In this document: positions 2,761-42,027 of the stretch, piece after piece
Layout: every line of letters begins with the position of its first letter
Numbering within the stretch: the first letter of the stretch is position 1
Assembly: GCA_964538435.1 (NCBI GenBank)
Contig: CAZIDX010000001.1
Coordinates: forward strand, 139,304-203,303
Length of the DNA: 64,000 bases
Origin: an uncultured Gammaproteobacteria bacterium
GTDB lineage: Bacteria > Patescibacteriota > Patescibacteriia > UBA9934 > GWF2-40-263
Direction of reading: 5' to 3'
Program-made: the position numbers and the translations under genes
The notes under the pieces: model-generated
The model's database searches: none
What the model saw: the letters and a program-made list of their open reading frames with translations, nothing else
What the model was told of the DNA's origin: nothing

Positions 2761-2774
2761 ACGCACAACCCCGC

Positions 2775-5275: not shown

Positions 5276-5357
5276 GGTAATGTGAGAATTTCACGAGGTG
5301 GTGGTCATCTATACTTCGAGATGGCCCGGCTCCGCCGAGTGAGATACTCGCATTACC
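5276..5357 (+). repeat. Hairpin-embedded conserved element, copy 1 (core 5296..5336)
   Basis: Core aggtggtggtcATctatacttcgagaTggcccggctccgcc sits inside the locus-specific inverted repeat ggtaatg...cattacc. The stem gtcAtct/agaTggc carries a compensatory change relative to copies 2-4. Confidence 0.7.
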
Positions 5358-5380
5358 TGCTAACTGGCGTCAATCTCAGC

Positions 5381-6022: not shown

Positions 6023-6027
6023 AAGGA

Positions 6028-7434
6028 TTATTCGTTATCTGACTTGTCTTCTTTCTTAGGAAGATACTTCTCAATATGATGCTCTTTGAGCCTCTTGAGC
6101 TCACGTTTTGGCAAGATAGTGAAAAGCTTCCAAGCGATTTCAAGAGTCTCTTCAATTGACCGATCATCATCCTTTCCTTGAGTGATAAACTCCTTTTCAA
6201 ACGCTTCAGCAAACTTGATGTATGCACGTTCAGCATCACTAAGAGCTGACTCACCAAGAATCACCGCAAGCTCACGAGCCTCTTTACCTGTCGCATATCC
6301 AGCAAAGAGCTGGTTAGCAACACCTGAGTGGTCATCACGTGTCTTTCCTTCTCCAATACCCTTTGACGCAAGTCGTGAAAGAGATGGAAGTGGATCAATA
6401 CATGGATAAATACCCTTTCGGTAAAGCTCTCGAGAAACAACCACCTGCCCCTCTGTAATGTAACCCGTAAGGTCAGGGATTGGGTGAGTCTTATCGTCTT
6501 CTGGCATGGTCAAGATCGGAATCTGTGTTACTGATCCTTTTCGTCCGCGAATCTTTCCTGCTCGTTCGTAGATAGTTGAAAGGTCCGTGTAGAGATATCC
6601 AGGATAACCACGTCGTCCAGGAATCTCCTTACGAGCCGCACCAACTTCTCGAAGTGCCTCACAGTAGTTGGTAAGGTCTGTCAAAATCACGAGTACATGC
6701 TTGCCTTTTTCAAACGCAAGGTACTCTGCTGTTGTGAGCGCCATTCGTGGAAGTGTGATTCGTTCAACCACTGGATCATCAGCTAGGTTGATAAAAAGCA
6801 CTGATCGCTCAATCGCCCCTGTTTTCTTGAACTCATTGATAAAAAACTCAGACTCCTCAAACGTCACACCCATCGCACCAAAAATCACACAGAAATCCTC
6901 ATCATCACCACCAGCATCAGAAACAACCTTTGCCTGACGCGCAATCTGCGCGGCAATCTCATTATGTGGAAGTCCAGCACCTGAGAAGAGTGGAAGTTTC
7001 TGTCCACGCACAAGTGTGTTAAGCCCATCAATGGTTGAAATACCAGTCTGGTAAAAGTCCTCTGGAAGCTCACGTGAGTACGGGTTGATTGGAGCACCGT
7101 TGATATCCAAATACTTCTCTGGAATCACAGCAGGCATACCATCCTTTGGATCAGCCACTCCTGAGAACACTCGTCCAAGCATGTCTGTTGACACACCGAT
7201 CTGAAGTGTCTTCCCAAGGAATGTTGCTGTTGCATTGTCCACGTCAATCCCTGATGTTCCCTCAAACATCTGCACAACCGCGTGCTTGTCTGTGATCTCA
7301 AGAACACGACCTCGTCGCTTTTCTCCATCACCAAGCTCCACCTCTACAATTTCTTCGTACATGACATCTGTAATGCCATCCACGATCACAAGTGGTCCCT
7401 GGACCTCCTTGATTGTCTTGTATCGTTTTTCCAT
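6028..7434 (-). CDS. atpB: A/V-type ATP synthase subunit B (non-catalytic)
   Basis: 468 aa with characteristic B-subunit sequence (...[38 protein letters not shown]...) and no canonical P-loop. Confidence 0.9.
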
Positions 7435-7435
7435 A

Positions 7436-9187
7436 TTATTGCGCAGAGATTAAATTCTTAATCTGATCTGCTGCTGTCTTTGCAAGTCCTTTAAGCTTGT
7501 CCTCGTCTGTCTCTAGTTTTGCTTTTGCAATCTCATCCTTAAACGGAAGCTCCGAAAGGTCTTTTACTTTTACATCCTTCTCTACAGCCTGAGTAGCATT
7601 CTCATGGAAGGTCATAATAGCCTTTAGCATGAGGTACATCCGTGCAGGAGGTGTGTATCCATCAACATCATCAAACGCAAACTGCTGCAAGTAGTCCTCA
7701 CGAATTGACTTGGCAGTATCAAGCACAACCTGCTCCTTTGCAGAGAGCGCATCAAGACCAACAAGCTTTACAATCTCCTGCAAACTGGACTCTTCCTGAA
7801 GAATTCCCATTGCTTCCATTCGCATTTCAGGCCAATCATTTCCAAAGTTCGCTCTCGCGTACTCTTCAATGTTATCCGTGTAAAGAGAGTAACTGTTGAG
7901 CCAATGAATCGCTGGGAAGTGACGTCGGTTAGCAAGCCCAGAGTCAAGCCCCCAGAACACCTTTGTCACACGAAGCGTGTTCTGTGTAACAGGCTCTGAA
8001 AGGTCTCCACCAGGAGGACTCACCGCACCAATAACAGAAAGTGACCCCTTGCGATCATCTTCTCCAAGACAGTTCACAGCACCAGCACGCTCGTAGAACG
8101 CAGCTGTTCGTGAACCCAAGTACGCTGGGTATCCCTCCTCACCAGGCATCTCCTCTAGTCGTCCAGAGATCTCACGAAGCGCCTCAGCCCATCGTGAAGT
8201 TGAGTCAGCCATAAGAGCCACATTGTAGCCCATGTCTCGGTAATACTCTGCCAAAGTAATTCCTGTGTACACAGACGCCTCACGCGCTGCCACAGGCATG
8301 TTTGATGTGTTTGCGATCATGGATGTTCGTTCCATGAGTGGCTTTCCTGACTTCGGGTCAATAAGCTCCGGGAACTCAACCAACACGTCTGTCATCTCGT
8401 TTCCACGCTCACCACAACCAATGTAGATGATGATGTCAGCATCACAATGCTTAGCAAGCGACTGCTGCGTCACGGTCTTTCCTGCTCCAAACGGTCCAGG
8501 AATACATGCTGCTCCACCTTTAACCAGTGGGAAGAATGTGTCCAAAATGCGCTGCCCAGTCACAAGCGGAGTCTTAGGCAAAACCTTTTCCTTGTACGGT
8601 CGTGGCTTTCGAATCGGCCATTTCTGCATCATTTGAATCTCAACATCTCCAACCTTCCCGATCACTTCTTCCACAGTGTATGAACCACTCTTTACTCCGG
8701 TGATCGTTCCCTCCACTCCAGGCGGCACCATGATTTTGTGCTCAATAAGATCGGTTTCTTGAACGGTTCCGATAACATCACCAGGATGCACTGGCTCACC
8801 ATCGCTCATAAGGGCCTTAAAGTCCCATTTCTTTTCACGGTCAAGTCCAGGCGCCTCAATTCCTTTTGTAATGTAAGGAGACTGAGCGATGCGTTCGATC
8901 GACTCAAGAGGGCGCTGAACACCGTCATAAATTGATTTCAAGATTCCGGGCCCAAGCTCTACAGAGAGAGGCATTCCTGTCATAAGTACTGGGTCACCTG
9001 GTTTGAGACCAGCTGTATCCTCGTACACCTGAATGGATGCCGTGTCACCCTGGAGTTTGATGATTTCACCCACAAGCTTGTGCTCACCGATTTTAACCAC
9101 GTCGAACATTCGCGCGTTGGTCATTTCAGCGGCAACCACAAGTGGTCCAGAAACCTTGATGATAACTCCGTTGTGTTCTTTCGCCAT
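7436..9187 (-). CDS. atpA: A/V-type ATP synthase catalytic subunit A
   Basis: 583 aa with Walker A motif GPFGAGKT and A-subunit-specific non-homologous region. Confidence 0.9.
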
Positions 9188-9190
9188 AAA

Positions 9191-9523
9191 TTAATTGTTG
9201 AATAGAATATCGCTTCCAATCGCCTGCTCAACAATCTTTTTCAAGTTTGCCAAACCGTCCTTTGTTGCCCCTTGCGGAGACGGAACAGTCACAAGCGCTG
9301 GAAGTGCTTCGTTTTTAAATGCTTCATCAAGGCTTGAGCGCACACGCGTGGCCCACTCCTCGGTAATGAATACTGCTGCAAATTGGTCTGATTTGAGTGT
9401 CTTGATGATCTCATCAATTTCACTCTCTTCCTTGATTGGCAAGCAAGCCACACCAAGAGGAATAAACCCCATGATGGCTTCCTCACTTCCAATGACACCA
9501 ATTTTGTAGTTTTGCTCTGCCAT
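9191..9523 (-). CDS. atpF: A/V-type ATP synthase subunit F
   Basis: 110 aa, positioned between subunits C and A as in A-ATPase operons. Confidence 0.7.
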   Translation of the reverse strand: MAEQNYKIGVIGSEEAIMGFIPLGVACLPIKEESEIDEIIKTLKSDQFAAVFITEEWATRVRSSLDEAFKNEALPALVTVPSPQGATKDGLANLKKIVEQAIGSDILFNN

Positions 9524-9524
9524 A

Positions 9525-10523
9525 TTAGTACGTATCTACAAGATGCTTTCGAATCTCTGAAGGCTCAATCTCACCAAACTTCAATGCCATGATTGTGCTC
9601 AGATTCTTGATCGCAAATTTCTTTCCAAAGTAATACGCAACCACCACTTCAGGCCCATACCCAATAAGCTTAGCCTTCTTGAGATGATCAATGATCACAT
9701 TATTGATTCCCCGAGACAGTCTCCAGATCTCCCTATCCTTCATGTAGTCCTCAATGTGCTCATCAAGCATCGGCGGAAAGTAATTTCTAAGCTGACCTAC
9801 AAATTCTGCTTCATCCGCAGAATCAACATGAGCCATAAAAACATGTAATGAGATATTCCCATAACTGTTTAAACGTTCCTTGACCCACGCAGAACTCTTT
9901 CCAAGTCTCTTTCCGCGAAGCAATAGCTTGATATTGTTTTTGTCAGCAAAGTACTTGTACAAATCAATAATAAATTGATTGCCAATCTTCTTTGCGATTG
10001 AGTGCTCAATGTGATTGAGCTTCTGGTCAACAAGATTTTCAATTCGCTCTGCATCAACCTCTTCTCCAATCTCTTGCTTAAGCTCGTCAATGTCTCTCTT
10101 TACTTTTTCATCAATCTCAGCACCAAGATCCTCAACAATATATCGTCGAAGCTGATCAATCGGGATAAGACCAGGCGCTGTCTCAAGGTGGTCCTCATAA
10201 TTCTCACCAGAAACTTTTTCTTTAAACAGTATCTTGATGTTGTAAAAATCTCGTTCAAGGAACAAAAGTCGCATGAGCTTTGGTTCAGGAATCGTCTGCT
10301 CAAACACTTTCTTGAGTCGGCTCATCTTTCGGCTCATGGCAACGCGGTAATCCTTTGCTTCCAAATCAAGAAGCTCACCCGCATAGTCAAGACTATTAAA
10401 AGCCTTAAACGCAATATCAGGCGTTTTTGCATCGATCACACGTGTCATGTCCGCATCGCTCAAAAGATGTTTCTCTAGGGAGCGAATCTTGGAACTGACG
10501 TAGATGTAATTATCGCGTGACAT
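9525..10523 (-). CDS. atpC: A/V-type ATP synthase subunit C (V-type d)
   Basis: 332-aa helical protein in the expected position. Confidence 0.7.
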   Translation of the reverse strand: MSRDNYIYVSSKIRSLEKHLLSDADMTRVIDAKTPDIAFKAFNSLDYAGELLDLEAKDYRVAMSRKMSRLKKVFEQTIPEPKLMRLLFLERDFYNIKILFKEKVSGENYEDHLETAPGLIPIDQLRRYIVEDLGAEIDEKVKRDIDELKQEIGEEVDAERIENLVDQKLNHIEHSIAKKIGNQFIIDLYKYFADKNNIKLLLRGKRLGKSSAWVKERLNSYGNISLHVFMAHVDSADEAEFVGQLRNYFPPMLDEHIEDYMKDREIWRLSRGINNVIIDHLKKAKLIGYGPEVVVAYYFGKKFAIKNLSTIMALKFGEIEPSEIRKHLVDTY

Positions 10524-10526
10524 GGA

Positions 10527-11093
10527 TTATGCGTTAAACATGGATTGATAAACCTCAATGAGCGATTGCTCACGAACCCGTTCCATAATGGTTTCAAAAC
10601 GGAAGTCGCGATCAATCGACTTACTCTGAAAGACAAACCCACCCACTGTCTCAATCGCGTCAGTAGAAATACTTGCTTTACAACCTGCCTTTTTCGCAGC
10701 TGCCGCAAGTTCAGCATGACGCTCTTTTGATGTAAGGAGCTCCCCTTCCTCGTCCTTGATTGACGAGAGCAACGTCTCAAGCAAGGCTTCATACTCACCC
10801 TTAGGAAGCTTTGCAACTTCCTCAAGAGCATCTGCATACACACTGTCAAGCTGAGCCTGTTTTGTACCAAGAAGCTTCGCGTTTACTTTTTCACGAATCT
10901 TAAACTTAGCCTGAGCAAGCTTTGAGTCAGTGTACCGTTCAATATCTTTAAGAAGACGCTCCTTTTCTTCACCTAAACGAACTTTCCACTCTTTTTCAAG
11001 AGCGGCTAGTTCATCTGAAGAACGCTTCTCAATGACTTTGATTTCATCGGCAGCCTTGTCCTTGATGTACTGTTGAATATCGTCAAAAGCCAT
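10527..11093 (-). CDS. atpE: A/V-type ATP synthase subunit E
   Basis: 188 aa, charged coiled-coil N-terminus, operon position. Confidence 0.7.
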   Translation of the reverse strand: MAFDDIQQYIKDKAADEIKVIEKRSSDELAALEKEWKVRLGEEKERLLKDIERYTDSKLAQAKFKIREKVNAKLLGTKQAQLDSVYADALEEVAKLPKGEYEALLETLLSSIKDEEGELLTSKERHAELAAAAKKAGCKASISTDAIETVGGFVFQSKSIDRDFRFETIMERVREQSLIEVYQSMFNA

Positions 11094-11098
11094 AGCTT

Positions 11099-11572
11099 TT
11101 AGACTGCAATACTAGTAACAAGCAAGATGGTGATAAGAAGTCCAAGCACAGCATAGGTCTCAACCATCGCTGAAAGAATGATTGCCTTACCAGACTCACC
11201 TGGCTTCTTAGCTACAACCCCCATACCCGCAGCTGATACACGCCCCTGAAGAAGTCCAGAAACAAGACCAGTAATTGCGATTGGAAGTGCTGCAAAGAAA
11301 ATCTGCCAACCAACTGAAGTTGAGATGGTTGCGATTTCTCCTCCGAGAAGACCGATCTTCTGAAGGATCATGATGGCAGCCAAGAATCCATAAATTCCCT
11401 GCGTACCAGGAAGCGCTTCAAGAAGAAGAGCTTTACCGAACTTGTCTGGATCTTCAGACACAACACCGCTTGCAGCTTGACCAGCAGCCCCCATTCCGAG
11501 TGCTGAACCAGCTCCTGCAAGACCAACGGCGAGAGCGGCACCAAATACCGCGAGTGCAATTCCCATTTCCAT
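11099..11572 (-). CDS. atpK: A/V-type ATP synthase proteolipid subunit K (c-ring)
   Basis: 157 aa, very hydrophobic and Gly/Ala-rich, with paired TM hairpins and a conserved acidic residue in a TM helix. Confidence 0.8.
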   Translation of the reverse strand: MEMGIALAVFGAALAVGLAGAGSALGMGAAGQAASGVVSEDPDKFGKALLLEALPGTQGIYGFLAAIMILQKIGLLGGEIATISTSVGWQIFFAALPIAITGLVSGLLQGRVSAAGMGVVAKKPGESGKAIILSAMVETYAVLGLLITILLVTSIAV

Positions 11573-11607
11573 AGTTTTGAATAACGATTAACGTTTATGA
11601 TTAGTGA

Positions 11608-13575
11608 TTAGATTTGTTCAGGTGACGAAATGTACTTCGTCGTTTTGACTAAAGGTTTAAACTTACGCCCTCCACCCACAAGGAATTTCGGAAAGTACTC
11701 AACATACTGAAGACGTCCTGAGTGGATAAAGGCTCCAAGAACGTTGATGGCCAGGTTGAACAGATGCCCTCCAACAATGATCAGAATCCAGACGAGCCAT
11801 CCAACATACGGCACCATTCCTGCAAAGAGATCTGCAACCAGATTAACAACCATAGCAATAATTCCAGTAGACAGACCTAGCGCCAGAAGACGTGAATACG
11901 AGAGAATATCTGAGAGGTATCCCACAAGCCCATAAAGGCTCGCTACTCCACCAAACAACTTTCCAATCAAGCTCTTCTTTTCATAGCCCTGCGTCAGAAT
12001 CATGGCTCCAATTCCTGCAAACAAGAGATACTTTGCAGGCTCACCCATACTCTCTGGAAGCACACCGGCTGCGGTCGCAATCCAGAGTCCAATGATGAGT
12101 AGGAATAATGTCCACATTCCACCGGTCATAAGCCCCTCCTTTGCAGCGCCATGCTTAATCTTCCAAACCATGTTCACCACATTTCCTGCAAGCATCTGGA
12201 TGTAACCCAGAATAAATGACAGGACCAGCACGTTCATTGGGTTCTCAACCGGATCGATCAGTCGTACAGACATGACGAAATCCTTAATCTGTCCTTCTGG
12301 CAAGTCTGCAATCACGACACCGAACCATCCACCGAACAATGCCCCGATAATGAAGGTTGCAATACCTCCAAGAAGCATTAAGTTGATAAGCTTCTTTGCT
12401 CCACCCCTTGGCTTCATGATCTTCAGCGCAGCATACGAGAGAATCGCTAGAAGCAATCCGTATCCAGCATCTGTCAAACAAAGCCCAAAGTAGAGAATAA
12501 AGAACGGTGCGAGGTAAATCGTTGGGTCTGGCTCATCTGATTGCGGGGCTCCGTAAATTTCTGTTACTGACTCAAATGGAGTCACAATGGCTTTGTTTTT
12601 CAAAACCACAGGAACATTTTCCTCTTCATCAACCTCTACTTGATCAATAACGTATTGACTGGTAATGCCCTTAATCTCTTTCTCAATATCTTCAAGCTGA
12701 TGATCAGGAACCCATCCCAATAGACTCACGGTTTGTTTTGTGGCCAAAGCCTTCTTTGCAGCCTCGTCCTGCTCTTTCTTCCAAGTCAAATAGTCGTACA
12801 AGACTTCGAAATTCTTAATCTCAGATCCAAACTTTTGAATATCCTTCTTTGCCGTCGCAAGTTTCTTTGTATCTACTTCAATTGCTTTCTCAAGCTGCTT
12901 GATTCGTTTTTCAATACTCACCCCCTCTTCTAGCTCAAACTCTACGGTTTTAAAATCAAACTCCTCAAACACCGTACTTACTTTCTCGTCTAGATCCTTT
13001 GCGTAGCTAAGAACCACTTTCACCTCCTTGTTGCTCTCGTCTACGCGTACAAGCTCCGTAAGCTTTAGCTTATCCCACTCCTCAACGAACTCCTGATAAC
13101 GAGTTACAGGCACAGTCCCCACAAGGAACATGACATACTTTCGATCAAGACCTTCGATTTGTGGCAAAGCCTTCCACTCCTGCAAGAACTTCTTTTCCTT
13201 CTTATCCTGACTGATCGTATTCTTTACAGCATTGTAATCCTTATCAAGATCCTCAAGTGTTTTGATGATCTTTTTATACTCAAAAGTCTTGAGCAGCTTC
13301 TCAATCCCCTTCTCATCAATTTCAGTGCGACCACTCTGAAGCTTTTGTATAAACGACTGCTTCTCTGGCACAACCATCTCATTGAGCAGATCAAGAGCAA
13401 ATTTCGTATTTGTCTGCCAATACTCAGCATTTGAGTCTGGCTTGTAGAGCACAACATCTTCACTTCCAATAGTCTCCACCTCAACAGCACCGCTCGTATG
13501 CAAAACATTAATTACGTCATCAAACGTATCTTTTACAACAGTAAGCTGAATCTTCGCCATCTTACTGACTGACAT
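11608..13575 (-). CDS. atpI: A/V-type ATP synthase subunit I (a-subunit)
   Basis: 655 aa with a soluble N-terminal half and a C-terminal multi-TM domain. It overlaps atpH by 14 nt. Confidence 0.8.
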   Translation of the reverse strand: MSVSKMAKIQLTVVKDTFDDVINVLHTSGAVEVETIGSEDVVLYKPDSNAEYWQTNTKFALDLLNEMVVPEKQSFIQKLQSGRTEIDEKGIEKLLKTFEYKKIIKTLEDLDKDYNAVKNTISQDKKEKKFLQEWKALPQIEGLDRKYVMFLVGTVPVTRYQEFVEEWDKLKLTELVRVDESNKEVKVVLSYAKDLDEKVSTVFEEFDFKTVEFELEEGVSIEKRIKQLEKAIEVDTKKLATAKKDIQKFGSEIKNFEVLYDYLTWKKEQDEAAKKALATKQTVSLLGWVPDHQLEDIEKEIKGITSQYVIDQVEVDEEENVPVVLKNKAIVTPFESVTEIYGAPQSDEPDPTIYLAPFFILYFGLCLTDAGYGLLLAILSYAALKIMKPRGGAKKLINLMLLGGIATFIIGALFGGWFGVVIADLPEGQIKDFVMSVRLIDPVENPMNVLVLSFILGYIQMLAGNVVNMVWKIKHGAAKEGLMTGGMWTLFLLIIGLWIATAAGVLPESMGEPAKYLLFAGIGAMILTQGYEKKSLIGKLFGGVASLYGLVGYLSDILSYSRLLALGLSTGIIAMVVNLVADLFAGMVPYVGWLVWILIIVGGHLFNLAINVLGAFIHSGRLQYVEYFPKFLVGGGRKFKPLVKTTKYISSPEQI

Positions 13576-13885
13576 AGGCTTTGAACTGTTTGATTACAAG
13601 ATCCTTAGCTTTCTTCACCTTGTCATCAGCTCCCTTAGCAATCTGATCCACATCTGACTTAAGCTGCTTCACCATGACATCTTTTTGCGCAGCAACTTCT
13701 GTCTGCACCTTCTCAGAAGCTTTTTTCCGATCACCACCAAGAGTTTCGGACAATTTATCAAACTCTTCCTGGTACTTATGATCAAGATCAGCCTTTGCTT
13801 TCTTTGCTTTTTCCAAAGCCTTAGCAATCGCTTTCTCAGCTGCCTCTTCTTCTTTCTGAATGTTCGCAATAGTTTGAGTGCTCAT
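13562..13885 (-). CDS. atpH: A/V-type ATP synthase subunit H (peripheral stalk)
   Basis: 107-aa Lys/Ala/Glu-rich helical protein and the first gene of the operon. Confidence 0.6.
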   Translation of the reverse strand: MSTQTIANIQKEEEAAEKAIAKALEKAKKAKADLDHKYQEEFDKLSETLGGDRKKASEKVQTEVAAQKDVMVKQLKSDVDQIAKGADDKVKKAKDLVIKQFKAYVSQ

Positions 13886-14975: not shown

Positions 14976-16013
14976 CTAGTTGTCTTCGTTTTCCGACTCC
15001 GAGTAGAATCCGGTCACGAAGTTGGCCTGGAACCAATCAGGGTCTGATCGGTCACGACCCAATTCGAGCTCCTCAACGCATCGATAGAGCATCTCGCCGA
15101 AGTCAATGTCCGGCTGGCCGCTACCCGATTTCCCGTCGCGGTAGAGGTTAGCATACACCTTCCACTGTTCGAGTCGGTCTGCACCTTGCTGAGCCAGCGC
15201 AGGACTGCGGTTACGCGACCAGCGAACTGCGACCAGCAGATCCTGATACAAACGCCTCCACCGAGGTGTACGAAGCACGGCTTTTGCGCGGTCCGTGATG
15301 GCGCGTTTGCGAACCGGCGGAGCCGTCCCAGCAACGTGATCATCACCGTCACCGTGCCTGCGCGAACCAGGCTTTCTTTCCGGCTCCGGCTTCGGCTTCG
15401 GCTCAGGTTCGGGCTCCGGCTCCGGTTTCGGTTTCGGTTTCGGCTCCGGCTCCGGTTTCGGCTCGGGCTCCGGCACAGGTTCGGGCTCCGGCTCAGGTTC
15501 GGGCTCGTCAGACACCACCTTTCTGTCTCTCACCGAACTCAGATCCAGACCTTCGAAAAGATCTACCCGCTTGACCGGCTCGGCATCGTGCATCATGTCC
15601 GCGTCAGTGCCACCAAACGGATCATCTACTTCCTCGTCTGAACCATCACCGTCTCCGGCCTCTGGCTCATCCTTACTCTCTTCGTCGGGTGGTTCTGTCG
15701 GCTCAGGTTCGGGCTCCGGCTCCGGTTTCGGCTCCGGTTCCTCCTCTTCTTCACCCTCCTGCTCAGCCGCACGCAACTTCCCCCACAAATCAATACGGGG
15801 GTCATCTGCATGAGCCTTGATGTACTCGGCCGGATTGTCGTGGAAATCCATGGACTCGTTCCATGCCTCCGCAACACCCAATGCCTCAGCCATGTCCTCA
15901 CCGTCGATCCCATCCTCGTCATCGAGATAGGTGTCGACATGCTCCTCAGTAGCAATGTCGGGATCATCCCCAAACAAAGCCTGAAGGGCATCTTCGAAGC
16001 TGTATTCGGCCAT
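14976..16013 (-). CDS. Highly acidic Pro/Glu/Lys-repeat protein (G+C-rich cassette)
   Basis: Long PEPEPEPEP / [19 protein letters not shown] tracts, an Asp/Glu-rich N-terminus and a basic Arg/Trp-containing C-terminus. GGAGGG RBS before the ATG at 16013; a hairpin terminator lies downstream at ~14895-14945. Confidence 0.6.
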
Positions 16014-16178
16014 TGGGCCCTCCGTTGTGTGTGGTTTGACAGCCAAAATCGTCATCAAGGACGACTTGGGCAACCGTGCAAGATAACACAAATTGACCCT
16101 TTTGTCAACAAAATGAGACAAGATTTGCTTGTTATCTTACTAAATGTTGTTAACTCTCAACATATATGCCAATCACGG

Positions 16179-16207
16179 TTGACAAAATCTCCATTTTCTG
16201 GTATTCT
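16179..16207 (+). promoter_or_regulatory. Near-consensus sigma70-type promoter for gene 16359..18098
   Basis: TTGACA (16179-16184), 17-nt spacer, TATTCT (16202-16207). Confidence 0.5.
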
Positions 16208-16358
16208 GCGCCTCTGGCACTAACATGCCCAAGTCGTCCTTTTTACCAAAAACAGTCTTGGCAAAAGTGTCTTTATAGACATTTCTGCCGAGACTGTTTC
16301 CCAACCCTCAATCAGCGTGTCTCTCGGAGCGCTGCACCCGACCCTAAGGAGGTCAAAC

Positions 16359-18098
16359 ATGGCAACTCAGAACCCACTCGTTCGCGACTCCAGCACCGGG
16401 CGTTTCATCGCCATCGTCGACGACATCGTCCTGCTCATGGCTCATCAGGAACCCGACTTCAATCGCAACCGCGGCAAGGCCATCAAGCGTGTTCGTGCGC
16501 GCATGATCATGGACCCCAAGAACGACAAGCTGCCGATCCGCGACGAGGTCGACTTCCGTCCGGTCCCGGGCGCGAACGCCTCCGGCTTCACCATCTCCTT
16601 CAACGAGAAGGGCATCCCCTTCGTAGACCCCTGCAAGACCATGGGTCTGCGCGCCGAGGCCATGCTGCCCGGCAAGGACGGCAACCTCGTGGAGACCTCG
16701 GTCCGCCCCGCCTTCGTGTGCGACGGCCTGTCCGGGTTCATCCCGTACGTGCAGCGCATCAAGGCCAAGGATGCCCAGGGTGAGCCCGGCACCGACGGCT
16801 ACAAGCCGGCCGTGCACACCTGGACCTCCACCGGCAAGATGCCCTGCATCTTCTTCCAGCCCCCGATCAAGAAGGGCAAGAAGGCCCCGCCGCCCGTGGC
16901 CGTTCCCCTGGGCCTGGCGCGTCCGTTCCTACTGGATGCCTGGAAGACCCTGGTCGAGCACCCGGATCGCCAGCACGCCACCCGCAAGCTCTTCGTGATC
17001 GAGCCGATCGCGAACAACCTGCGTGGCAACAAGCGCCACCTGGTCTTCACCCCGCGCGGCAACCCCTACACCCCGGTGTGGTACAACAAGAGCGCGGACA
17101 AGCTCCGCGATGCGCTCAAGCGCAAGCTCAACGGCGAAGCCAACGTGGTCATCCCCAGCCCGGATGGTCAGGTCCTGACCCACCTCTTCGGTAAGGTCGT
17201 GACCCCGATCACGCACAAGACCGAGACCCCGGTCGAGTACGACCTGCCCGGTGGCAAGACCGGCTGCGTCCCCTGCGTGTTCCGCATCCAGGAGCAGAGC
17301 GGTGTGGTCAAGGCCATCTACAAGGGTGAGAAGCGCCACATGGGCAACCTGGTCGCACAGGACCTGAGCTTGGACGACCTCGAGTTCAACGCGCTCACGG
17401 CCCTGGGCCTGACCATGGAGACGGCCATGACCGGCCGTGCTCTGCGCAAGCTCAAGAACAAGCTCCTGCGCGGCCCCCAGGACCAGACCAACCCCCTGTA
17501 CATGCAGGCGGTCGAGTCCTCGGGTCTCGAGCCCGGCCACCACAAGGCACAGGCCAGTGGCCCCATGCGCTTCATCGCTGACTCCGCGGTCGAGCAGGTC
17601 GAGACTCAGCTCAACGAGGAGATCAACCTGATCGCCGGCAAGCTGATCATGCCCGGTCACCGCGACAAGCCCGAACTGGTGACGCTCCTCGGCGAACTGG
17701 ACGGCACCAAGCTTCGCGAGGCCGCGTTCCAGCGCGAGGGTGCCTGCATCCTGGCCACCTGGGTCGCCAAGACCCAGAACTGGGACGAGTTCAGCTGGGG
17801 CTCCGAGCTGCACCGCCGCGTGCGCTACAAGGTCCTCATGAGCCTGGCCAAGGCCGCCGACCTCAAGATGGCCCCCAAGCCCAAGCCCAAGCCCGCCCCG
17901 GAGCCCACCAACGGTTCCGGCTCCGCGGATCAGGGCTCCGAGGGTGGCTCCAACACGCCCAAGGACGGTGGCAATCAGAAGGCCGCCAGCGACTCCGAGG
18001 CCCCGGCCGAGGAGACCCCTCGCGAGCGCAAGAACCGTCTCGCCCGCGAGCGCCGCGCCAAGGCCAAGGCCAAGAAGCTGGCCGAAGAGAGTGCTTAG
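16359..18098 (+). CDS. Hypothetical 580-aa protein with a Lys/Ala/Glu-rich disordered C-terminal tail (G+C-rich cassette)
   Basis: AGGAGG RBS 6 nt before the ATG at 16359. No recognisable catalytic motif. The C-terminus ...KPKPKPAPEP...RERKNRLARERRAKAKAKKLAEESA suggests nucleic-acid or polyanion binding. Confidence 0.55.
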   Translation: MATQNPLVRDSSTGRFIAIVDDIVLLMAHQEPDFNRNRGKAIKRVRARMIMDPKNDKLPIRDEVDFRPVPGANASGFTISFNEKGIPFVDPCKTMGLRAEAMLPGKDGNLVETSVRPAFVCDGLSGFIPYVQRIKAKDAQGEPGTDGYKPAVHTWTSTGKMPCIFFQPPIKKGKKAPPPVAVPLGLARPFLLDAWKTLVEHPDRQHATRKLFVIEPIANNLRGNKRHLVFTPRGNPYTPVWYNKSADKLRDALKRKLNGEANVVIPSPDGQVLTHLFGKVVTPITHKTETPVEYDLPGGKTGCVPCVFRIQEQSGVVKAIYKGEKRHMGNLVAQDLSLDDLEFNALTALGLTMETAMTGRALRKLKNKLLRGPQDQTNPLYMQAVESSGLEPGHHKAQASGPMRFIADSAVEQVETQLNEEINLIAGKLIMPGHRDKPELVTLLGELDGTKLREAAFQREGACILATWVAKTQNWDEFSWGSELHRRVRYKVLMSLAKAADLKMAPKPKPKPAPEPTNGSGSADQGSEGGSNTPKDGGNQKAASDSEAPAEETPRERKNRLARERRAKAKAKKLAEESA

Positions 18099-18356
18099 CC
18101 CAGCGCCTAGCGCGCTACACCACCGACACCAAATCGGTGACGAAAGGCCCGGTGAGGACCTGGAAGACGAACGTGTCTCCCAGGCCCTCCCGGCGCCTTT
18201 TCTATTTCCCAACCAAAACCACACACACAACCGCAACCACAAGCACAAACACAAGCACAACCCCCATGGAGATGGCGACCTAAGGGGCTCAACGCCCCGC
18301 CAGGTCGCAGCCCCCACTACCCCACCTATAGGCCCAGGACGCCAAACGGCCGTTCG

Positions 18357-18447
18357 AGGTGTTGTGAGAAAAATCACGAGGTGGTGGTCGTCTATCCTGC
18401 GAGACGGCCCGGCTCCGCCTCGTTATTTTTCTCACAACACCTCGTGG
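18357..18447 (+). repeat. Hairpin-embedded conserved element, copy 2 (core 18379..18419)
   Basis: The core is flanked by the perfect inverted repeat gtgttgtgagaaaaat / atttttctcacaacac and by cacgagg / cctcgtg. Confidence 0.75.
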
Positions 18448-24758: not shown

Positions 24759-24869
24759 ACAACTCAATGCCCATAAAAACCGCCCAACGGCGGTTTTTTG
24801 CTTGCTTTCAATAATCGTGTAAGCTACATCTTGTATGGACGATGGTGTTCAGAAAAGAAAGACCTCGCA

Positions 24870-25040
24870 ATGACCACCTCAGAAATCACAAGGACTGAGA
24901 CAAGACTTTGCCTCACATCACTAGTACTGGCCGCAACCGCCGGTCTGTCAATCACAAACGAGACAACAGCCTGGATCTGTCCAATCGCACTCTTCTTCAT
25001 GGTGCTGATTGTCTTCTGCATCGCGCTGATGCCCTCATGA
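24870..25040 (+). CDS. Possible small hydrophobic peptide (57 aa)
   Basis: MTTSEITRTETRLCLTSLVLAATAGLSITNETTAWICPIALFFMVLIVFCIALMPS. No SD, and followed by the hairpin gacgaccttcccctgggaggtcgtTTTCGATTTC. Weak call. Confidence 0.25.
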   Translation: MTTSEITRTETRLCLTSLVLAATAGLSITNETTAWICPIALFFMVLIVFCIALMPS

Positions 25041-25147
25041 GCTTACGCACAGCTCAGCACGAGACGACCTTCCCCTGGGAGGTCGTTTTCGATTTCTAGA
25101 CCATTTCATATACACGTCGATCGTCACATATATGAAAAGACTTGCTC

Positions 25148-25176
25148 TTGACACAACTGCTTTTCCAACATATTCT
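25148..25176 (+). promoter_or_regulatory. Near-consensus promoter for the MNRK micro-ORF pair
   Basis: TTGACA (25148-25153), 17-nt spacer, TATTCT (25171-25176). Confidence 0.5.
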
Positions 25177-25214
25177 CCCTTTCCTGACTCATGACGAGTC
25201 AAAGGAGGAAGCGA

Positions 25215-25325
25215 ATGAATCGCAAGGGTATGACCCAGGTCCAAGCACTGGCCCTGGTGGGTGGACTGTTCGGAATCGCCATGATGATCGCCTGCGCAAG
25301 CTGGATGATCTCCACAGCGATCTAG
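25215..25325 (+). CDS. Micro-ORF 1: 36-aa hydrophobic peptide MNRKGMTQVQALALVGGLFGIAMMIACASWMISTAI
   Basis: AGGAGG RBS 6 nt upstream. Single TM-like segment with small-xxx-small motifs. Confidence 0.45.
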   Translation: MNRKGMTQVQALALVGGLFGIAMMIACASWMISTAI

Positions 25326-25339
25326 ACCAAGGAGTAACC

Positions 25340-25375
25340 ATGAATCGCAAAGCCTTCACCCACCTGGACGACTAG
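25340..25375 (+). CDS. Micro-ORF 2: 11-aa peptide MNRKAFTHLDD
   Basis: AAGGAG RBS 5 nt upstream. Shares the MNRK N-terminus with micro-ORF 1. The terminator gacgacctctcggggtcgtTTTCTAATTATTTTT follows at ~25385-25420. Confidence 0.35.
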   Translation: MNRKAFTHLDD

Positions 25376-25442
25376 ACAACACGAAAGACGACCTCTCGGG
25401 GTCGTTTTCTAATTATTTTTCAAGTGTTATCGTCAAGAACCC

Positions 25443-25471
25443 TTGACAATAACACCAAAAAAATGTATATT
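25443..25471 (+). promoter_or_regulatory. Near-consensus promoter for the pilin-like gene
   Basis: TTGACA (25443-25448), 17-nt spacer, TATATT (25466-25471). Confidence 0.5.
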
Positions 25472-25505
25472 CGTTCTCTTAGCTATCCTGCTAAGGGAAA
25501 GGAAA

Positions 25506-25934
25506 ATGAGGATGTTAGGAGAGCTGAGGTCACACCTCAGAAAGGTCAAGAGCGAGAGAAGGGGCTTCACCTTGATCGAACTCATGATCGTACTCGCAAT
25601 CGTCGGGATCATCCTGGCCATCGTCGTCGGACTCATCATCTTCTTCGTCATCGGTAAGAAGGCGCTGCCCGCGGCCAAGAGCCAAATGGTTACCGACATC
25701 AACGCGATCGAGTGGGTCGAGGACGAACTCGACTACACCAACGTGCGGCTCATCGAGAGCTACCGCACCAACCCCCAGGGCGACCTGGGATGCGAGCAGG
25801 TCGACGACGCCGGTTTCAAGCTGATCGGCACAGACACGGACAACATCGAACACACCATCGAAATCTGCTGCCTGGGTTCGCCAGGAAGCAAGCCTCGATG
25901 CAACCTGGTCAACAGATCCGCAGAAGGGACCTAG
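25506..25934 (+). CDS. Type IV pilin / pseudopilin-like protein (class III signal peptide)
   Basis: ...RRGFTLIELMIVLAIVGIILAIVV..., i.e. the prepilin-peptidase GFTLIE cleavage/methylation motif followed by a hydrophobic helix. Confidence 0.7.
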   Translation: MRMLGELRSHLRKVKSERRGFTLIELMIVLAIVGIILAIVVGLIIFFVIGKKALPAAKSQMVTDINAIEWVEDELDYTNVRLIESYRTNPQGDLGCEQVDDAGFKLIGTDTDNIEHTIEICCLGSPGSKPRCNLVNRSAEGT

Positions 25935-25937
25935 ACT

Positions 25938-26399
25938 ATGTTCGGACTCATCCTCGCTGTCATCGGATTCATGTTCCTGGCTATCACCGGACACCCGCCC
26001 GAGGCCATGATCACCACGAGCACCCTGCTCTTCTGGTGGTACGTGGTGTGGCAGTGCGTCGGCGCCGTCTTCCTGGTGATCGGGATCATCACGATCCTCA
26101 CCACGGGATCTGTCGGAGGTTTCGCAACCGGAGCAACACTCGGACGACTCGGCGGAGCCATTCTCGGTGGCTTGATCGGCTCACTGGGAGGATTCGGACT
26201 CGCCGCGCTGTGCGTCTTCAGCTTCGCACTGAAGACCGTCCTACTGTGCGGCGGCTCCTGGCTCGTCATGCACAGCGGCTCCCCATCCATGGAGAGCCTG
26301 AGCGAGTTCAACTCGCTGTACCTGTACGGAGGAATCGCAATGGTCGCCATCGGCGCCATTTTCTTCTCCGGACGCTCGAGCTCCTCGAGCGACGACTAG
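25938..26399 (+). CDS. Glycine-zipper-rich integral membrane protein (153 aa)
   Basis: Repeated GxxxG motifs (GGFATGATLGRLGGAILGGLIGSLGGFGLAAL) and a Ser-rich C-terminus. The ATG lies 4 nt after the pilin stop. Confidence 0.5.
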   Translation: MFGLILAVIGFMFLAITGHPPEAMITTSTLLFWWYVVWQCVGAVFLVIGIITILTTGSVGGFATGATLGRLGGAILGGLIGSLGGFGLAALCVFSFALKTVLLCGGSWLVMHSGSPSMESLSEFNSLYLYGGIAMVAIGAIFFSGRSSSSSDD

Positions 26400-26569
26400 C
26401 GCCCGGAGGCGCGTGGCTGAACGTTGTATTTATTGAAAAACGGATTCCTCTGGAGTGTGTTTCTAAATAGGCAACCGAGTCACAATGACGGAATCGAAAG
26501 ACGACCCCCTTGGGTCGTCTCTTTCAATTTTGGTGAATTTATTTCGTAGGTACGAACAAAATTCACCAA

Positions 26570-33946: not shown

Positions 33947-35041
33947 ATGATGTCTGGAGAATTCAACCAACATGGTGGTCTCACACTCGTTGGACTGCGC
34001 GGGTACGAGGCTCTCATCAACACCGTCAAGGACCTCATCGAAACCAAGAGTGGCAACGATGGAGGGAAGACCCCACACACCCCCGTGGACATCGTCCGCC
34101 CCGAGATCAAGCGCTTCGCAAACGGCGAACCTGATGTCCGCCTGCGCAAGCAACATGTCGGTGGTCATGACATCGTCGTAGTGACCTCGGGTCCTGGCAC
34201 AAACGACATGATCATGGAAACACTCTGGGTACTCAACCACCTGGCAGCACATCGCGCATCGCGCATCATGCTGGTGACTGGGTATTTTCCACTCAGCCGA
34301 TCCGACAAGGACGAAGCTGAGGTGCGTCTGACCACTCCACCCATGGTGATCAACTGGTTCAAGATGGCTTCCATGCACCCCAATGGTAAGGACTGCCTAC
34401 TCTGTCGTGTGGTCTGTGCTGACCCGCACAGCGTCCAGCTCACTATGGCCGGAGACTCTGGGTTCATCACCCCGATCTTCTTGACCCGGCGCCTGCTTCG
34501 CCCCACCATTACGGACGCTCTCGAGCAGAACAAGCGCATTGCCCTGGCATTCCCAGACAACAGCGCTGTCGCTCGATTCGAGCCCGCCATTCTCAAGGTG
34601 CAGAAGTCCCTGGACATCGAAATTCCCATCGTGGTCGCAATCAAGCGGCGAGACATGCTCACAGGCAAGTCCACGCTCGTGGGAATGCAAGGAGACCTGG
34701 AGAATCTCGAGGGATCTCTGGTTATCATGTGCGACGACGAGATCGACACCGGTGGCAGCATCATGAACATGGCCACGCTTCTCAGGGACATGTACAAGGT
34801 CGACTCCGTGTGGGCCGCTGTCATTCATGCCGTGTTCAGCGACCCGGCTCCACAACGCTTCATGTTCGCGGACTCACCCGTGGATCGCGTTCTTGCTATG
34901 AACACGATCCCGCACAACAACCGTTCCGAGATCGCCCCTCTGATCGAGTGTGGACGACTGAACATGTATCCCTGGCTCGAAGATCTGGCCTGGTTGATTC
35001 TCATGCACCACTGGAAGGTGGGCATGCGAGAAGCCCGCTAG
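33947..35041 (+). CDS. Divergent ribose-phosphate pyrophosphokinase (PRPP synthetase, Prs) homologue in a G+C-rich cassette
   Basis: SGPGTNDMIMETLWVLNHLAAHRASRIMLVTGYFPLSRSDK aligns with E. coli Prs [42 protein letters not shown]. The C-terminal PRPP-binding loop LVIMCDDEIDTGGS is present. GGAG RBS. The terminator ends GGTTTTCTCATAATTTG. Confidence 0.6.
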   Translation: MMSGEFNQHGGLTLVGLRGYEALINTVKDLIETKSGNDGGKTPHTPVDIVRPEIKRFANGEPDVRLRKQHVGGHDIVVVTSGPGTNDMIMETLWVLNHLAAHRASRIMLVTGYFPLSRSDKDEAEVRLTTPPMVINWFKMASMHPNGKDCLLCRVVCADPHSVQLTMAGDSGFITPIFLTRRLLRPTITDALEQNKRIALAFPDNSAVARFEPAILKVQKSLDIEIPIVVAIKRRDMLTGKSTLVGMQGDLENLEGSLVIMCDDEIDTGGSIMNMATLLRDMYKVDSVWAAVIHAVFSDPAPQRFMFADSPVDRVLAMNTIPHNNRSEIAPLIECGRLNMYPWLEDLAWLILMHHWKVGMREAR

Positions 35042-40004: not shown

Positions 40005-40919
40005 CTAGGCCGCGGTCGCCTGCTGACCAGCGCGTCGCTTGGCCTCGGCAGCAGTGCGTGCGAGCGCGTCATCGAGAGAACGCTCGGCCTTACGCTTACT
40101 TGCTCGGTCCTCCTCGAACTCCTCGGCCATGCTGTCGAGCTTGGCCTTGAGCTCATCCATCCGGCCTTCATCCACGCTGCTCGCGAAGATGCCGGCCAGG
40201 ATGTAGTCCAGGAACGCTGGCGTGCTACGAATCTGCGCGACCCGCTGCTCGTACTTGGCCTTCACAGCCTCGTACTCGGCACGGATCTTGACCGCGTATT
40301 CCGAATCGTCTCCTTCGTACCGCTTCACGATCTTACTCAGCTCGTGCACGGCCACTGCCAGCTTTGCTTCGTCCTCAATGTAGGACGGGAGGCAGGTGCC
40401 CACGAGCCACTCGATGCGGTCACTGATCGAACCAGCTACCATCCCGGCCTCGGGTGCGGCCTTGCGAATCTGCTCGATACCGCGACGCACAGCACCACGA
40501 ACCGAGAGCATACGCAGCCGGCGAAGCGGGGCGAACTTGAGCGAGAGCCATTTCCAGCCACGCTTGAGCAGTCCACCGGTTCCCTGCAGCGCAGCCTGAG
40601 CCGTGAAGCTCAGCACGATGACCACGAGGCCTTGTAGGAAGCTGATCAGGTCCATCCCCCACACACCGACCCCGAAGAGAATCGCAGTGATCGCGTAGAA
40701 CACGGTGGAGTAGATCCAGCCGTAGCCAGAGAACACACCGTCAGGCAGCTTGGTCTCTCCCTTGTTCTTGAGGAACAACTGAGTCGACTCGTGCACCTGC
40801 TTGATGTTGCGGAACATGAACACGGCGCCCATGAACGTTGTCAGGCCCATGAGCCCGAGGTAGAGCATGGTCTGCGTGAACGTAACCATATGCGAGAGGA
40901 AAGTGATGGTAATGTCCAT
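40005..40919 (-). CDS. 3-TM membrane protein with a long cytoplasmic coiled-coil tail (G+C-rich cassette), divergent from the PNP-like gene
   Basis: GGAGGG RBS before the ATG at 40919. Three N-terminal hydrophobic helices, then a charged Ala/Glu/Lys/Arg-rich helical C-terminus. Confidence 0.55.
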   Translation of the reverse strand: MDITITFLSHMVTFTQTMLYLGLMGLTTFMGAVFMFRNIKQVHESTQLFLKNKGETKLPDGVFSGYGWIYSTVFYAITAILFGVGVWGMDLISFLQGLVVIVLSFTAQAALQGTGGLLKRGWKWLSLKFAPLRRLRMLSVRGAVRRGIEQIRKAAPEAGMVAGSISDRIEWLVGTCLPSYIEDEAKLAVAVHELSKIVKRYEGDDSEYAVKIRAEYEAVKAKYEQRVAQIRSTPAFLDYILAGIFASSVDEGRMDELKAKLDSMAEEFEEDRASKRKAERSLDDALARTAAEAKRRAGQQATAA

Positions 40920-40967
40920 CTGATGCCCTCCACGGCTTGTTGTTTCAGGAAGCTTGGAAACAAGAAA

Positions 40968-40992
40968 AACTACCATAAAACGGTAGTTTTGT
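40968..40992. promoter_or_regulatory. Perfect 9-bp-arm palindrome aaaactacc-ataaaac-ggtagtttt inside the divergent promoter region
   Basis: Lies between the putative -35 (TTGACA) and -10 (TAGTTT) of the minus-strand gene 40005..40919, so it is operator-like. Confidence 0.4.
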
Positions 40993-41056
40993 CAAGCAAT
41001 AAGTATGATATTTTACCAATAATCCGCCAATTCTAAAGAAAACTGACATTTTGAAG

Positions 41057-41084
41057 TTGACACTCCATCAAAAACCGCTAGAAT
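41057..41084 (+). promoter_or_regulatory. Near-consensus promoter for the PNP-like gene
   Basis: TTGACA (41057-41062), 16-nt spacer, TAGAAT (41079-41084). Confidence 0.5.
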
Positions 41085-41121
41085 GCCCATCTGCCCAAAC
41101 CAAGACAGGAGGTCTTCGCGC

Positions 41122-42027
41122 ATGGGACGACTCAGAGAAGAAGGAATCAAAATCCTCAAGGCACACGGAACCGATCCCACTGGATCCAATGCCATGGGGC
41201 TCATCCTGGGCACAGGCTGGTCTGATCCTGACGTGCTCAACGGACTCGGTCTCAAGATCGAAGAAGTCATTCACTTCAGCGAGGTCGGCATCGATCCTGG
41301 CACTGGCGCCGGTCATCCGAACTGCTTCCTGCTCGGCACATGGCATGGGCGAGAGGTTGTGCTCAGCCACGGTCGCGTGCACATGTACCAGGACCGCGCT
41401 GCGCGCTGCGCAAGCGAGTCCATCCTCCGCAAGTGGTTCGCGGTCTTCCTAGCTCTGATGGGAGACGGTCGCAAGATCGTGCCCACCAGCTCAGTCGGTG
41501 GTGTCGGCCACAAGACCAAGGCTGGCATGGTCGTCAAGCCGGTCGGCCTCATCTCAGCTCACCTCCCTCAGACCTACCTGGACGGCAACGCTGGCGAGTT
41601 CGTCATGGGCGAGCACCTGATCTGGGACAACCACGCCGAATTCAACATCGACCGAACGCACCTCGCCCTGCTGTTCAGGCAGGCCGCGCGTGAAGCCGAT
41701 CTCAAGCCCGACCTCTACGGTCAGCACATCGTGGTTCCTGGCCCCGGCTTCGGAGGCGCTGCCGAGCGCAACCTCTGGGACCAGTGGGGCATCAAGTCTG
41801 TGGGCATGTCCCTCGATCCCGAGCTGCGACTCCTCGCCCTCGAGATGATGACCAACGACTCGGACGAGCCCGAGTACGAGGTCCTCCCAGCCTTCATCGT
41901 CACGGACGACCACGATCTCCCCATCCACGAACAGATCCAGGCCGCAGCCAAGGCCCGTGCCCCCCAGCTCGGCCGCTTCCTCTCCCATGTCGTACGCACC
42001 GACTGGGACGCAATCACCCTGCCCTAA
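41122..42027 (+). CDS. Purine nucleoside phosphorylase family-2 (PNP/MTAP-like) homologue in a G+C-rich cassette
   Basis: AMGLILGTGWSD...EVIHFSEVGIDPGTGAGHPNCFLLGTWHGREVVLSHGRVHMYQ aligns with human PNP GSGLGGL...[49 protein letters not shown] matches GMSTVPE. AGGAGG RBS. The terminator ends GGGTTTTCTATTTC. Confidence 0.65.
   Translation: MGRLREEGIKILKAHGTDPTGSNAMGLILGTGWSDPDVLNGLGLKIEEVIHFSEVGIDPGTGAGHPNCFLLGTWHGREVVLSHGRVHMYQDRAARCASESILRKWFAVFLALMGDGRKIVPTSSVGGVGHKTKAGMVVKPVGLISAHLPQTYLDGNAGEFVMGEHLIWDNHAEFNIDRTHLALLFRQAAREADLKPDLYGQHIVVPGPGFGGAAERNLWDQWGIKSVGMSLDPELRLLALEMMTNDSDEPEYEVLPAFIVTDDHDLPIHEQIQAAAKARAPQLGRFLSHVVRTDWDAITLP

Follow-up and report, generated by a model that had tools for sequence, protein, structure and literature searches.

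The locus described here is flanked by ahpC and grx, two convergent genes of a 64,000-nt stretch of contig CAZIDX010000001.1 (hereafter the window, meaning the whole stretch of DNA that was analysed) and contains two very short open reading frames (ORFs), both starting with the residues MNRK, followed by a gene coding for a type IV pilin-like protein and a gene coding for a membrane protein (hereafter the partner). The MetRS encoded in the window is 72–79% identical to proteins named Candidatus Uhrbacteria or Parcubacteria, therefore the genome is placed in the candidate phyla radiation (CPR), or Patescibacteria, and the organism is a Candidatus Uhrbacteria-like bacterium of this ultra-small group. 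The window was compared with related genome contigs, which are designated by L-numbers where they have to be told apart. The region is not an assembly artefact, because the ORFs, the three terminator stems and their spacing all recur in an independently assembled sister sample (L002/L087, SRR8146440). The segment 24760–26579, which occupies the slot between ahpC and grx, has the following features (in protein sequences a slash marks the putative prepilin cleavage site).

24775–24798, plus strand: intrinsic terminator of ahpC, the stop codon of which (24758) is the left edge of the variable slot.
24870–25040, plus strand: 56-aa hydrophobic ORF of module 1, without a clear Shine-Dalgarno (SD) sequence and with only a degenerate promoter.
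25050–25089, plus strand: terminator T1 (stem 25063–25086), ending module 1.
25148–25176, plus strand: promoter P2, TTGACA-17-TATTCT, 10/12 consensus matches.
25180–25214, plus strand: hairpin of the 5′ untranslated region (UTR), a fold prediction in which CUUUCC is paired with the SD.
25215–25325, plus strand: ORF1, 36 aa, MNRKGMTQVQALALVGGLFGIAMMIACASWMISTAI, a pilin-type leader MNRK-G and a hydrophobic helix, GC content at third codon positions (GC3) 0.76.
25340–25375, plus strand: ORF2, 11 aa, MNRKAFTHLDD, SD AAGGAG at 25329–25334.
25385–25408, plus strand: terminator T2, a single terminator for ORF1 and ORF2.
25443–25471, plus strand: promoter P3, TTGACA-17-TATATT, 11/12 consensus matches, 35 nt after T2.
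25506–25934, plus strand: type IV pilin-like gene, 142 aa, ...ERRG/FTLIELMIV..., with four Cys in the C-terminal domain.
25938–26399, plus strand: partner membrane protein gene, 153 aa, starting 3 nt after the pilin stop.
26499–26520, both strands: terminator T3, a symmetric hairpin that is the counterpart of the final slot terminator in L095 and L089.

The MNRK module consists of P2, the two small ORFs and T2. According to the initial annotation, which was made from the letters alone, a near-consensus promoter drives two MNRK ORFs of 36 and 11 aa with strong ribosome-binding sites, each ORF being followed by a terminator. All these elements are present in the DNA except that T2 serves the pair. 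Only 61 nt separate the ORF1 stop from the terminator stem, and ORF2 ends 11 nt before it. The SD of ORF1 is AAGGAGGA (25202–25209), 5 nt upstream of the ATG. On both strands of the 64-kb window, ATGAATCGCAA was found at the starts of ORF1 and ORF2 only (about 0.03 occurrences expected for an 11-mer). These starts form a 23-nt direct repeat with 78% identity, so the shared MNRK start is not due to chance. ORF1 (25253–25263) and ORF2 (25357–25367) are additionally joined by an 11-nt inverted repeat. The stem GACGACC...GGTCGT occurs in three copies in the region and nowhere else in the window (0/100 shuffles), with T2 being an 83% copy of T3, and each of the repeated hairpins is followed by a T-run and folds as an ordinary intrinsic terminator.

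The downstream genes make up an intact operon, and here the promoter, the class III pilin-like gene and the GxxxG-rich membrane protein gene noted initially are all confirmed, with a spacer of 3 nt, not 4, between the immediately adjoining genes. The 142-aa protein matches PF07963 (E 3.5e-8, 33.1 bits with a cutoff of 21.2) and TIGR02532 (E 1.6e-9, 37.2 bits with a cutoff of 16.3). It possesses a class III signal (...SERRG/FTLIELMIVLAIVGIILAIV) with a basic leader ending in Gly, Glu at position +5 and a hydrophobic helix of about 20 residues. It is 54% identical to the pilin of L175, 50% identical to P0001, the pilin of L004, and 56% identical to the C-terminal part of the L098 pilin. Its head is very rare, with five matches among 5.8 billion proteins, and was modelled as one helix and four strands with Cys pairs, showing no fold match in the PDB. 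No relatives of the C-terminal domain were found in the metagenome scan; in the contig profile scan, for which the full-length pilin alignment was used, generic GFTLIELM N-termini from Proteobacteria dominated, and no true relatives emerged.

The partner is built of four long helices and carries an LLFWWY motif, a Gly-zipper and a poly-Ser-Asp-Asp tail, and its AlphaFold2 (AF2) model is all-helical with a predicted local distance difference test (pLDDT) score of 90.4 and no fold match in the PDB. The family has no match in Pfam. Its profile search gave 175 clusters at E <= 1e-3, 61 of them at E <= 1e-10, with full-length alignments, and the members (about 150 aa) are marked by an M-x-G-L start, a FLFWWY helix, a GxxxG-rich helix, a GGAYLL helix and a poly-Ser(-Asp) C-tail. 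Judging by these marks, the partner is a member of an uncharacterised membrane-protein family. In the Uhrbacteria genome L005 a partner homologue stands alone with no adjoining pilin gene. Pilus-assembly families (T2SSE, T2SSF, Peptidase_A24, PilM/N/O) were not found among about 50 ORFs of the window searched against Pfam, as the initial annotation had also reported; this search covered the 64-kb window of a 285-kb contig. Apart from that of the 142-aa protein, no prepilin motif of the form G-[FM]-T-x-x-E was found in any frame of the window.

The gene order around the slot, with ahpC read to the right and DUF3179, grx and LAP read to the left, is kept across many related contigs, in which ahpC and grx are convergent. 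The DNA homology between the window and its relatives ends at the ahpC stop (24758/9) and restarts at 26580, the 3′ end of grx. The slot itself is hypervariable among the relatives, as follows.

L088, L099, L102 and L176–178, about 46–60 bp: essentially a single terminator.
L089, L090, L091 and L096, 394 bp: a 47-aa single-helix ORF between the same ACGACC...GGTCGT hairpins.
L175, about 1085 bp: promoter, pilin, partner, terminator.
L098, 1189 bp: broken pilin, then partner.
L095, 1270 bp: 159-aa partner-like gene, then divergent pilin.
Window, 1811 bp: module 1, MNRK module, intact pilin/partner operon.

In L175 the operon is intact, with a promoter, a 141-aa pilin (...QQG/FTLVELMIV...CCLGSPGHDPRC), a 151-aa partner (...SSSSSSSSSDD) and a terminator. 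In L004 the pilin gene is located immediately 3′ of ahpC. The pilin gene of L098 (4856–5169) is split between two frames by a deletion and a frameshift, with about 25 helix/linker codons gone, and is followed by the partner gene; it is either a pseudogene or an assembly error and, if real, would represent another stage of decay in the slot. In L095 the order is reversed, the 159-aa partner-like gene preceding the pilin gene, each having its own promoter and terminator and both being divergent. The pilin and partner families are both confirmed by alignments, with pairwise BLASTP E values from 3e-40 to 4e-6. The MNRK module is not present with the orthologous pilin operons of L175 and L004, nor with that of L098, where an unrelated 45-aa ORF lies upstream of the pilin.

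In the public gene calls, long spurious ORFs on the antisense strand cover these GC3-rich pilin and partner genes, and the genes themselves are missed (L002 10813–11277, L087 1815–2279, L175 3294–4229). The 311-aa ORF of L175 and the 154-aa ORF of L002 were rejected as genes, as they are the antisense strands of pilin and partner. Such calls probably explain the scarcity of homologues in protein databases.

The small ORFs find their counterpart in the pilin gene of L095, the closest relative of the window (87% identity in the flanking LAP protein, which is 57–87% identical among the slot-bearing relatives). This gene has the promoter TTGACA-17-TAATCT, the 5′UTR cactttcctggctcaagacgagccttgggaggacga and the start ATGAATCG... 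within ATGAATCGTTCAAATCGCAAAGGCTTCACCCTAGTAGAAGCT (MNRSNRKG/FTLVEA...), and its 3′ end reads ...acgaaAGACGACC...TTTTCTAATT. P2 aligns with its promoter. According to blastn, the region 25174–25222, which includes the UTR, the SD and ATGAATCG, matches L095 5321–5367 (81.6% over 49 nt, E 4e-5). ORF2 (25343–25361) matches L095 5372–5390 at 18 of 19 positions (E 2e-3) over the codons N-R-K-G-F-T, with Gly-1 replaced by Ala, and T1 (25050–25089) matches L095 5241–5279 (82.5% over 40 nt, E 2e-3), where the counterpart of T1 is the terminator located after the 159-aa gene and before the pilin promoter. T2 and the L095 pilin terminator have ACGAAAGACGACC in common, identical at 13/13 positions, as well as the TTTTCTAATT tail. 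All these matches are colinear.

At the protein level, ORF1 aligns without gaps with the N-terminus of the L095 pilin (NRKG/MTQVQALALVGGLFGIAMMIACASW versus NRKG/FTLVEAGCVTFIIAGVILLLIGIFW) with a score of 43, compared with 21.3 +/- 4.7 in shuffles, of which 3/1000 reached it, and tblastx gives an in-frame high-scoring segment pair between the ORF1 region and the L095 pilin (E 4e-6). The N-terminus of the L098 pilin can be aligned as well, with Trp in the same register (4/1000 shuffles reach the score). ORF1 thus consists of the pilin leader and the alpha-1N helix, with a stop six residues past the Trp, and ORF2 consists of the first eight pilin codons (with the same Gly-1 to Ala change) and three further codons, followed by a stop and, 11 nt on, by a pilin-type terminator; compared with the L095 pilin, about 280 nt of the pilin body are gone. 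The L095 pilin is itself Cys-poor and motif-poor and matches N_methyl with an E value of only 0.1, so this pilin lineage is already degenerate.

The UTRs of the window (25180–25214) and L095 (5326–5359) fold alike, both pairing the CUUUCC tract with the SD GGAGG; their inner hairpins (GACUC/GAGUC and GGCUC/GAGCC) differ by a single compensatory pair, in a comparison of two sequences only. The SD-occluding 5′UTR could be a translational control element of the L095-type pilin lineage. The 56-aa ORF of module 1 corresponds in position to the 159-aa membrane-protein gene of L095; no significant similarity of this ORF was found to the pilins or to the 159-aa protein, and it may be a remnant.

Since the promoter, 5′UTR, ribosome-binding site, start, leader and terminator are homologous to those of the L095 pilin gene, it is reasonable to suggest, with a probability of roughly 70%, that the MNRK ORFs are leftover front ends of a decayed or displaced pilin gene standing beside an intact operon in a hypervariable slot. 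ORF2 would be a pilin gene with its body deleted, because its coding sequence meets the terminator region almost directly. The initial annotation had offered three readings of the micro-ORFs, as a leader-peptide or attenuator pair, as small membrane toxins or, speculatively, as pilin-associated minor subunits. The last comes closest, in that the ORFs share their ancestry with a pilin gene's 5′ end, although they appear to be truncated remnants and not minor subunits. The slot would host an accessory small type IV pilin and its four-helix Gly-zipper partner, which have been gained, rearranged, degraded and lost time and again, the turnover proceeding through deletion, rearrangement and probably recombination; it is suggested by the disrupted L098 pilin, the degenerate L095 pilin, the empty slots and the duplicated terminators (T2/T3, 83%). 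The window would then contain one intact L175-type operon (P3, pilin, partner, T3) preceded by the wreck of an older or alternative L095-type array, namely module 1 ending in T1 and module 2 with the MNRK stubs ending in T2.

As a pilin remnant, the module appears to keep the promoter, the SD-occluding UTR hairpin, the SD, the start and the class III leader of its source. Because the promoter, UTR, SD and terminator survive, transcription of the module into an RNA of about 225 nt probably continues, and so, probably, does translation of ORF1 into a peptide predicted to insert into the membrane. The module seems to have no regulatory link to the downstream operon, because T2 folds alone, P3 matches the consensus at 11/12 positions and the orthologous operons lack the module, and it is most likely a decaying relic, the product of ordinary gene turnover with no new regulatory device. 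Cleavage of the intact operon's pilin presumably falls to a prepilin peptidase, and its assembly to a type IV pilus or competence machinery whose genes lie elsewhere; the partner, starting 3 nt after the pilin stop, is presumably its inner-membrane accessory.

The 142-aa protein resembles known type IV pilins (PF07963, TIGR02532) in its basic leader with G/FTLIELMIV and in the long alpha-1N helix, with ORF1 and ORF2 being homologous to the part of such a gene that encodes the leader and N-terminus. The differences are that the head of the 142-aa protein has only about five relatives in the 5.8 billion proteins and no fold match; that ORF1 lacks Glu5 and a globular domain and fails the hidden Markov models (HMMs); and that ORF2 has Ala at –1 and only six residues past the would-be cleavage site. 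The CPR 'Pam' pilus (10.64898/2026.03.03.709456) was considered and set aside, since its pilins work by donor-strand exchange and are unrelated to the N_methyl pilin of the window.

Several points weigh against the decay of a pilin gene. The pilin type matching the stubs is found in one relative only (L095), the matches are short (19–49 nt), and the similarity of ORF1 past about ten codons is seen at the protein level only. The end of ORF2 (CTG GAC GAC TAG) resembles both the end of the L095 pilin (ATG GAC CAG TAA) and the end of the partner (...GAC GAC TAG) and is too short to choose between them. ORF1 has an intact promoter, an SD stronger than that of L095, an open frame and a GC3 of 0.76, so it could be a maintained small gene, and the recurrence of small single-helix ORFs in the slot (L098, L089) hints at function. 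The former of these (L098 4638–4775, 45 aa, MNLNNG/LTARNIF...) is preceded by an SD and lies just upstream of the pilin; the latter (L089 6738–6881, 47 aa), also with an SD, ends in ...VIGVKALI, where the pilin has VIGKKAL, and is the sole occupant of its slot. Compared with the helix of the window pilin, their scores are reached by 11 and 9 of 1000 shuffles, respectively, which is non-significant after multiple testing.

These points lead to an alternative which we consider unlikely, namely that ORF1 encodes a mini-pilin, or a membrane peptide derived from a pilin, which is functional and maintained. Cleavage after Gly5 would give a 31-aa product consisting of alpha-1N only, with ORF2 being incidental; the role of this product would be to modulate, prime, cap or poison the assembly of pili or to serve as a membrane anchor. 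The expression signals of ORF1 are intact and strong, its GC3 is of the coding type, like that of the adjoining real genes, the K-G leader and a hydrophobic helix of about 25 residues are kept, and SD-preceded single-helix ORFs recur in the L098 and L089 slots, although with the non-significant similarities given above. On the other hand, ORF1 has no match to PF07963 or TIGR02532, even at E 10 on Pfam. At position +5 it has Gln in place of the Glu needed by pilins for assembly, and at +1 Met in place of Phe; it has no globular C-terminal domain and ends 31 residues past the putative cleavage site.

The mature peptide of 31 aa would also be below the shortest functional pilins, which to our knowledge are Flp (about 40–50 aa) and Geobacter PilA-N (61 aa). 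Flp/Tad pilins and Geobacter PilA-N consist of little beyond the N-terminal helix, and in Geobacter a membrane protein is encoded right after the pilin. ORF1 differs from both in being shorter and in lacking the G/xxxxEY Flp motif and Glu5, while the partner in the window differs from PilA-C in following a full-length pilin and not the stub, in being all-helical and in being unrelated to it by the searches run. An orthologue of ORF1 was not found in any other genome, though ORF1 was never searched directly in public collections, and the adjoining ORF2 is clearly a deletion product, both of which speak for a remnant and against a maintained gene.

It is likewise unlikely that the slot is a dedicated pilin-variation locus, in which the N-terminal stumps (ORF1 and the 45-aa and 47-aa ORFs of L098 and L089) are functional products and not debris. 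As parts of this idea, processed peptides consisting of alpha-1N only could compete with full pilins for the assembly platform, tuning or switching pilus display, and the high GC3 would reflect frequent recombination through GC-biased gene conversion. Silent or partial pilin gene copies and pilin pseudogenes offer a known comparison for the stubs: in the pilE/pilS system of Neisseria, a strain-variable locus, partial pilin copies lie beside the expressed pilin gene. The pilS copies, which serve as recombination donors, have neither the promoter nor the conserved 5′ end but retain the variable 3′ part. The window is alike in having partial copies beside an intact pilin gene in a variable locus, but in its stubs it is the 3′ part that is lost, with the promoter, the SD and the 5′ end remaining; a G-quadruplex (G4) or Sma/Cla-type recombination element is absent here, as is any sign of the stubs donating sequence.

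The pilin had also been described initially as lying on a foreign-looking cassette, and the corresponding explanation, that a mobile cassette array (integron-like, phage- or plasmid-borne), with the hairpins as recombination sites, was recently acquired and makes up all of the 1.8 kb, is improbable. The composition does look foreign, since ORF1, ORF2, the pilin and the partner have GC3 values of 0.76–0.83 each, compared with about 0.45 in the neighbouring genes; the presence of the slot contents is polymorphic, the same hairpin stem is repeated three times here and nowhere else in the 64 kb, and several other GC-rich islands lie in the window. However, the GC3 excess over the flanks is present in every genome compared, including L098, where it is smaller, and the hairpins are ordinary intrinsic terminators with T-runs. 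No recombinase or integrase gene is located in or beside the slot, and no relatives were found in IMG/VR (scans with the pilin head and the partner), among INPHARED phages or among PLSDB plasmids. The pilin and partner stand in the same slot although the LAP flank has diverged to 57–87%, and the promoter, UTR and terminators of L095 have diverged from those of the window about as much as ahpC from its relatives (about 79–82% DNA identity), both of which fit vertical descent with local turnover. The module was found in the ahpC/grx slot in every case: L175, L098 and L095 have these genes there, and in L004 ahpC is followed by the pilin gene. The pilin/partner locus therefore appears to be a lineage-resident accessory locus and not a recent foreign cassette.

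The proposal that ORF1 is a small membrane toxin of the type I class (hok, tisB, fst) is very improbable. ORF1 does resemble Hok, TisB, Fst and Ldr in its size of 36 aa, basic N-terminus and single hydrophobic helix and in the SD-occluding structured 5′UTR, which is common in type I toxin mRNAs. However, beyond hydrophobicity the proposal gains no support: a consensus scan, which may miss a promoter, detected none on the minus strand across 25140–25420 and hence no antisense RNA signal over ORF1, and Pfam and NCBIfam gave no match for ORF1, with no search aimed at toxin families having been made. The UTR and the N-terminus appear to derive from an L095-type pilin gene, so a toxin is superfluous as an explanation of the occluded SD.

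The remaining explanation, a leader-peptide attenuator in which translation of ORF1 and ORF2 sets termination at T2 and thereby read-through into the pilin operon, is largely refuted and has hardly any probability left: it can draw on the tiny ORF ending 11 nt before the terminator stem, as in trpL, pheL and hisL, which likewise combine a tiny ORF and a strong SD directly upstream of an intrinsic terminator, on the 11-nt inverted repeat between the two ORFs and on a sub-threshold Rfam Phe_leader match on the opposite strand (24.6 bits versus a gathering score of 55), but no antiterminator or other structure competes with the T2 hairpin in the minimum free energy (MFE) or centroid folds (whole-transcript z-score –1.55), the ORFs contain no run of regulatory codons, no Rfam family exceeds the threshold (at the gathering threshold and with permissive E-values there are only sub-threshold chance matches), the operon has its own near-consensus P3 35 nt after T2, the promoter-driven operons of L175 and L004 have no upstream ORF pair and that of L098 has only its unrelated 45-aa ORF, and the module is homologous to the pilin gene's own 5′ end.

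Several observations concern the surroundings of the locus. Between T3 and the grx stop there is an AT-rich 19-nt inverted repeat (26530–26569, 89% complementary, with a 2-nt loop), which is probably part of the minus-strand grx terminator. The composition of the window is mosaic, with islands of GC3 0.72–0.90 on a background of 0.40–0.48. Besides the locus, GC-rich islands (GC 0.55–0.66, in a genome with 44% GC) are found at 800–3577, 14976–18377 and 33947–35041 and, in the same GC range, at 40005–42027, 53324–53812 and 63024–63857. They encode unrelated genes, including those for a VWA-domain protein, a PRPP-synthetase-like protein and a PNP_UDP phosphorylase and several family-less ORFs. 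Transfer from a GC-rich donor or host and recombination-driven GC bias are two possibilities for this genome-wide mosaic.

The window also carries a V/A-type ATPase operon on the minus strand (4293–13885) with genes for V_ATPase_I (655 aa) and the c-subunit and with two further ORFs, of 583 and 468 aa, where the A and B subunits would be expected. L176 and L177 instead have an F-type ATP synthase operon a few kb past the shared TatD/CvpA/MetRS block, and the ATPase type may have been swapped between close relatives.

With the micro-ORFs explained as probable products of gene decay, their annotation as leader peptides or toxins should be avoided, and the MNRK module would add a new case of an ordinary process, the decay of genes in a variable surface-protein locus. 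Gene callers often put spurious antisense ORFs over GC3-rich genes, hiding such a family from protein databases, and this calls for caution. In Uhrbacteria-like CPR bacteria, a small and very rare type IV pilin is recurrently paired with a protein of the uncharacterised four-helix Gly-zipper/poly-Ser family, an association not described previously. In Saccharibacteria, which are cultivated CPR bacteria, type IV pili mediate host attachment (PMC9894109, PMC11623550). The ahpC/grx hypervariable slot could be used as a marker of surface-structure turnover between close strains.

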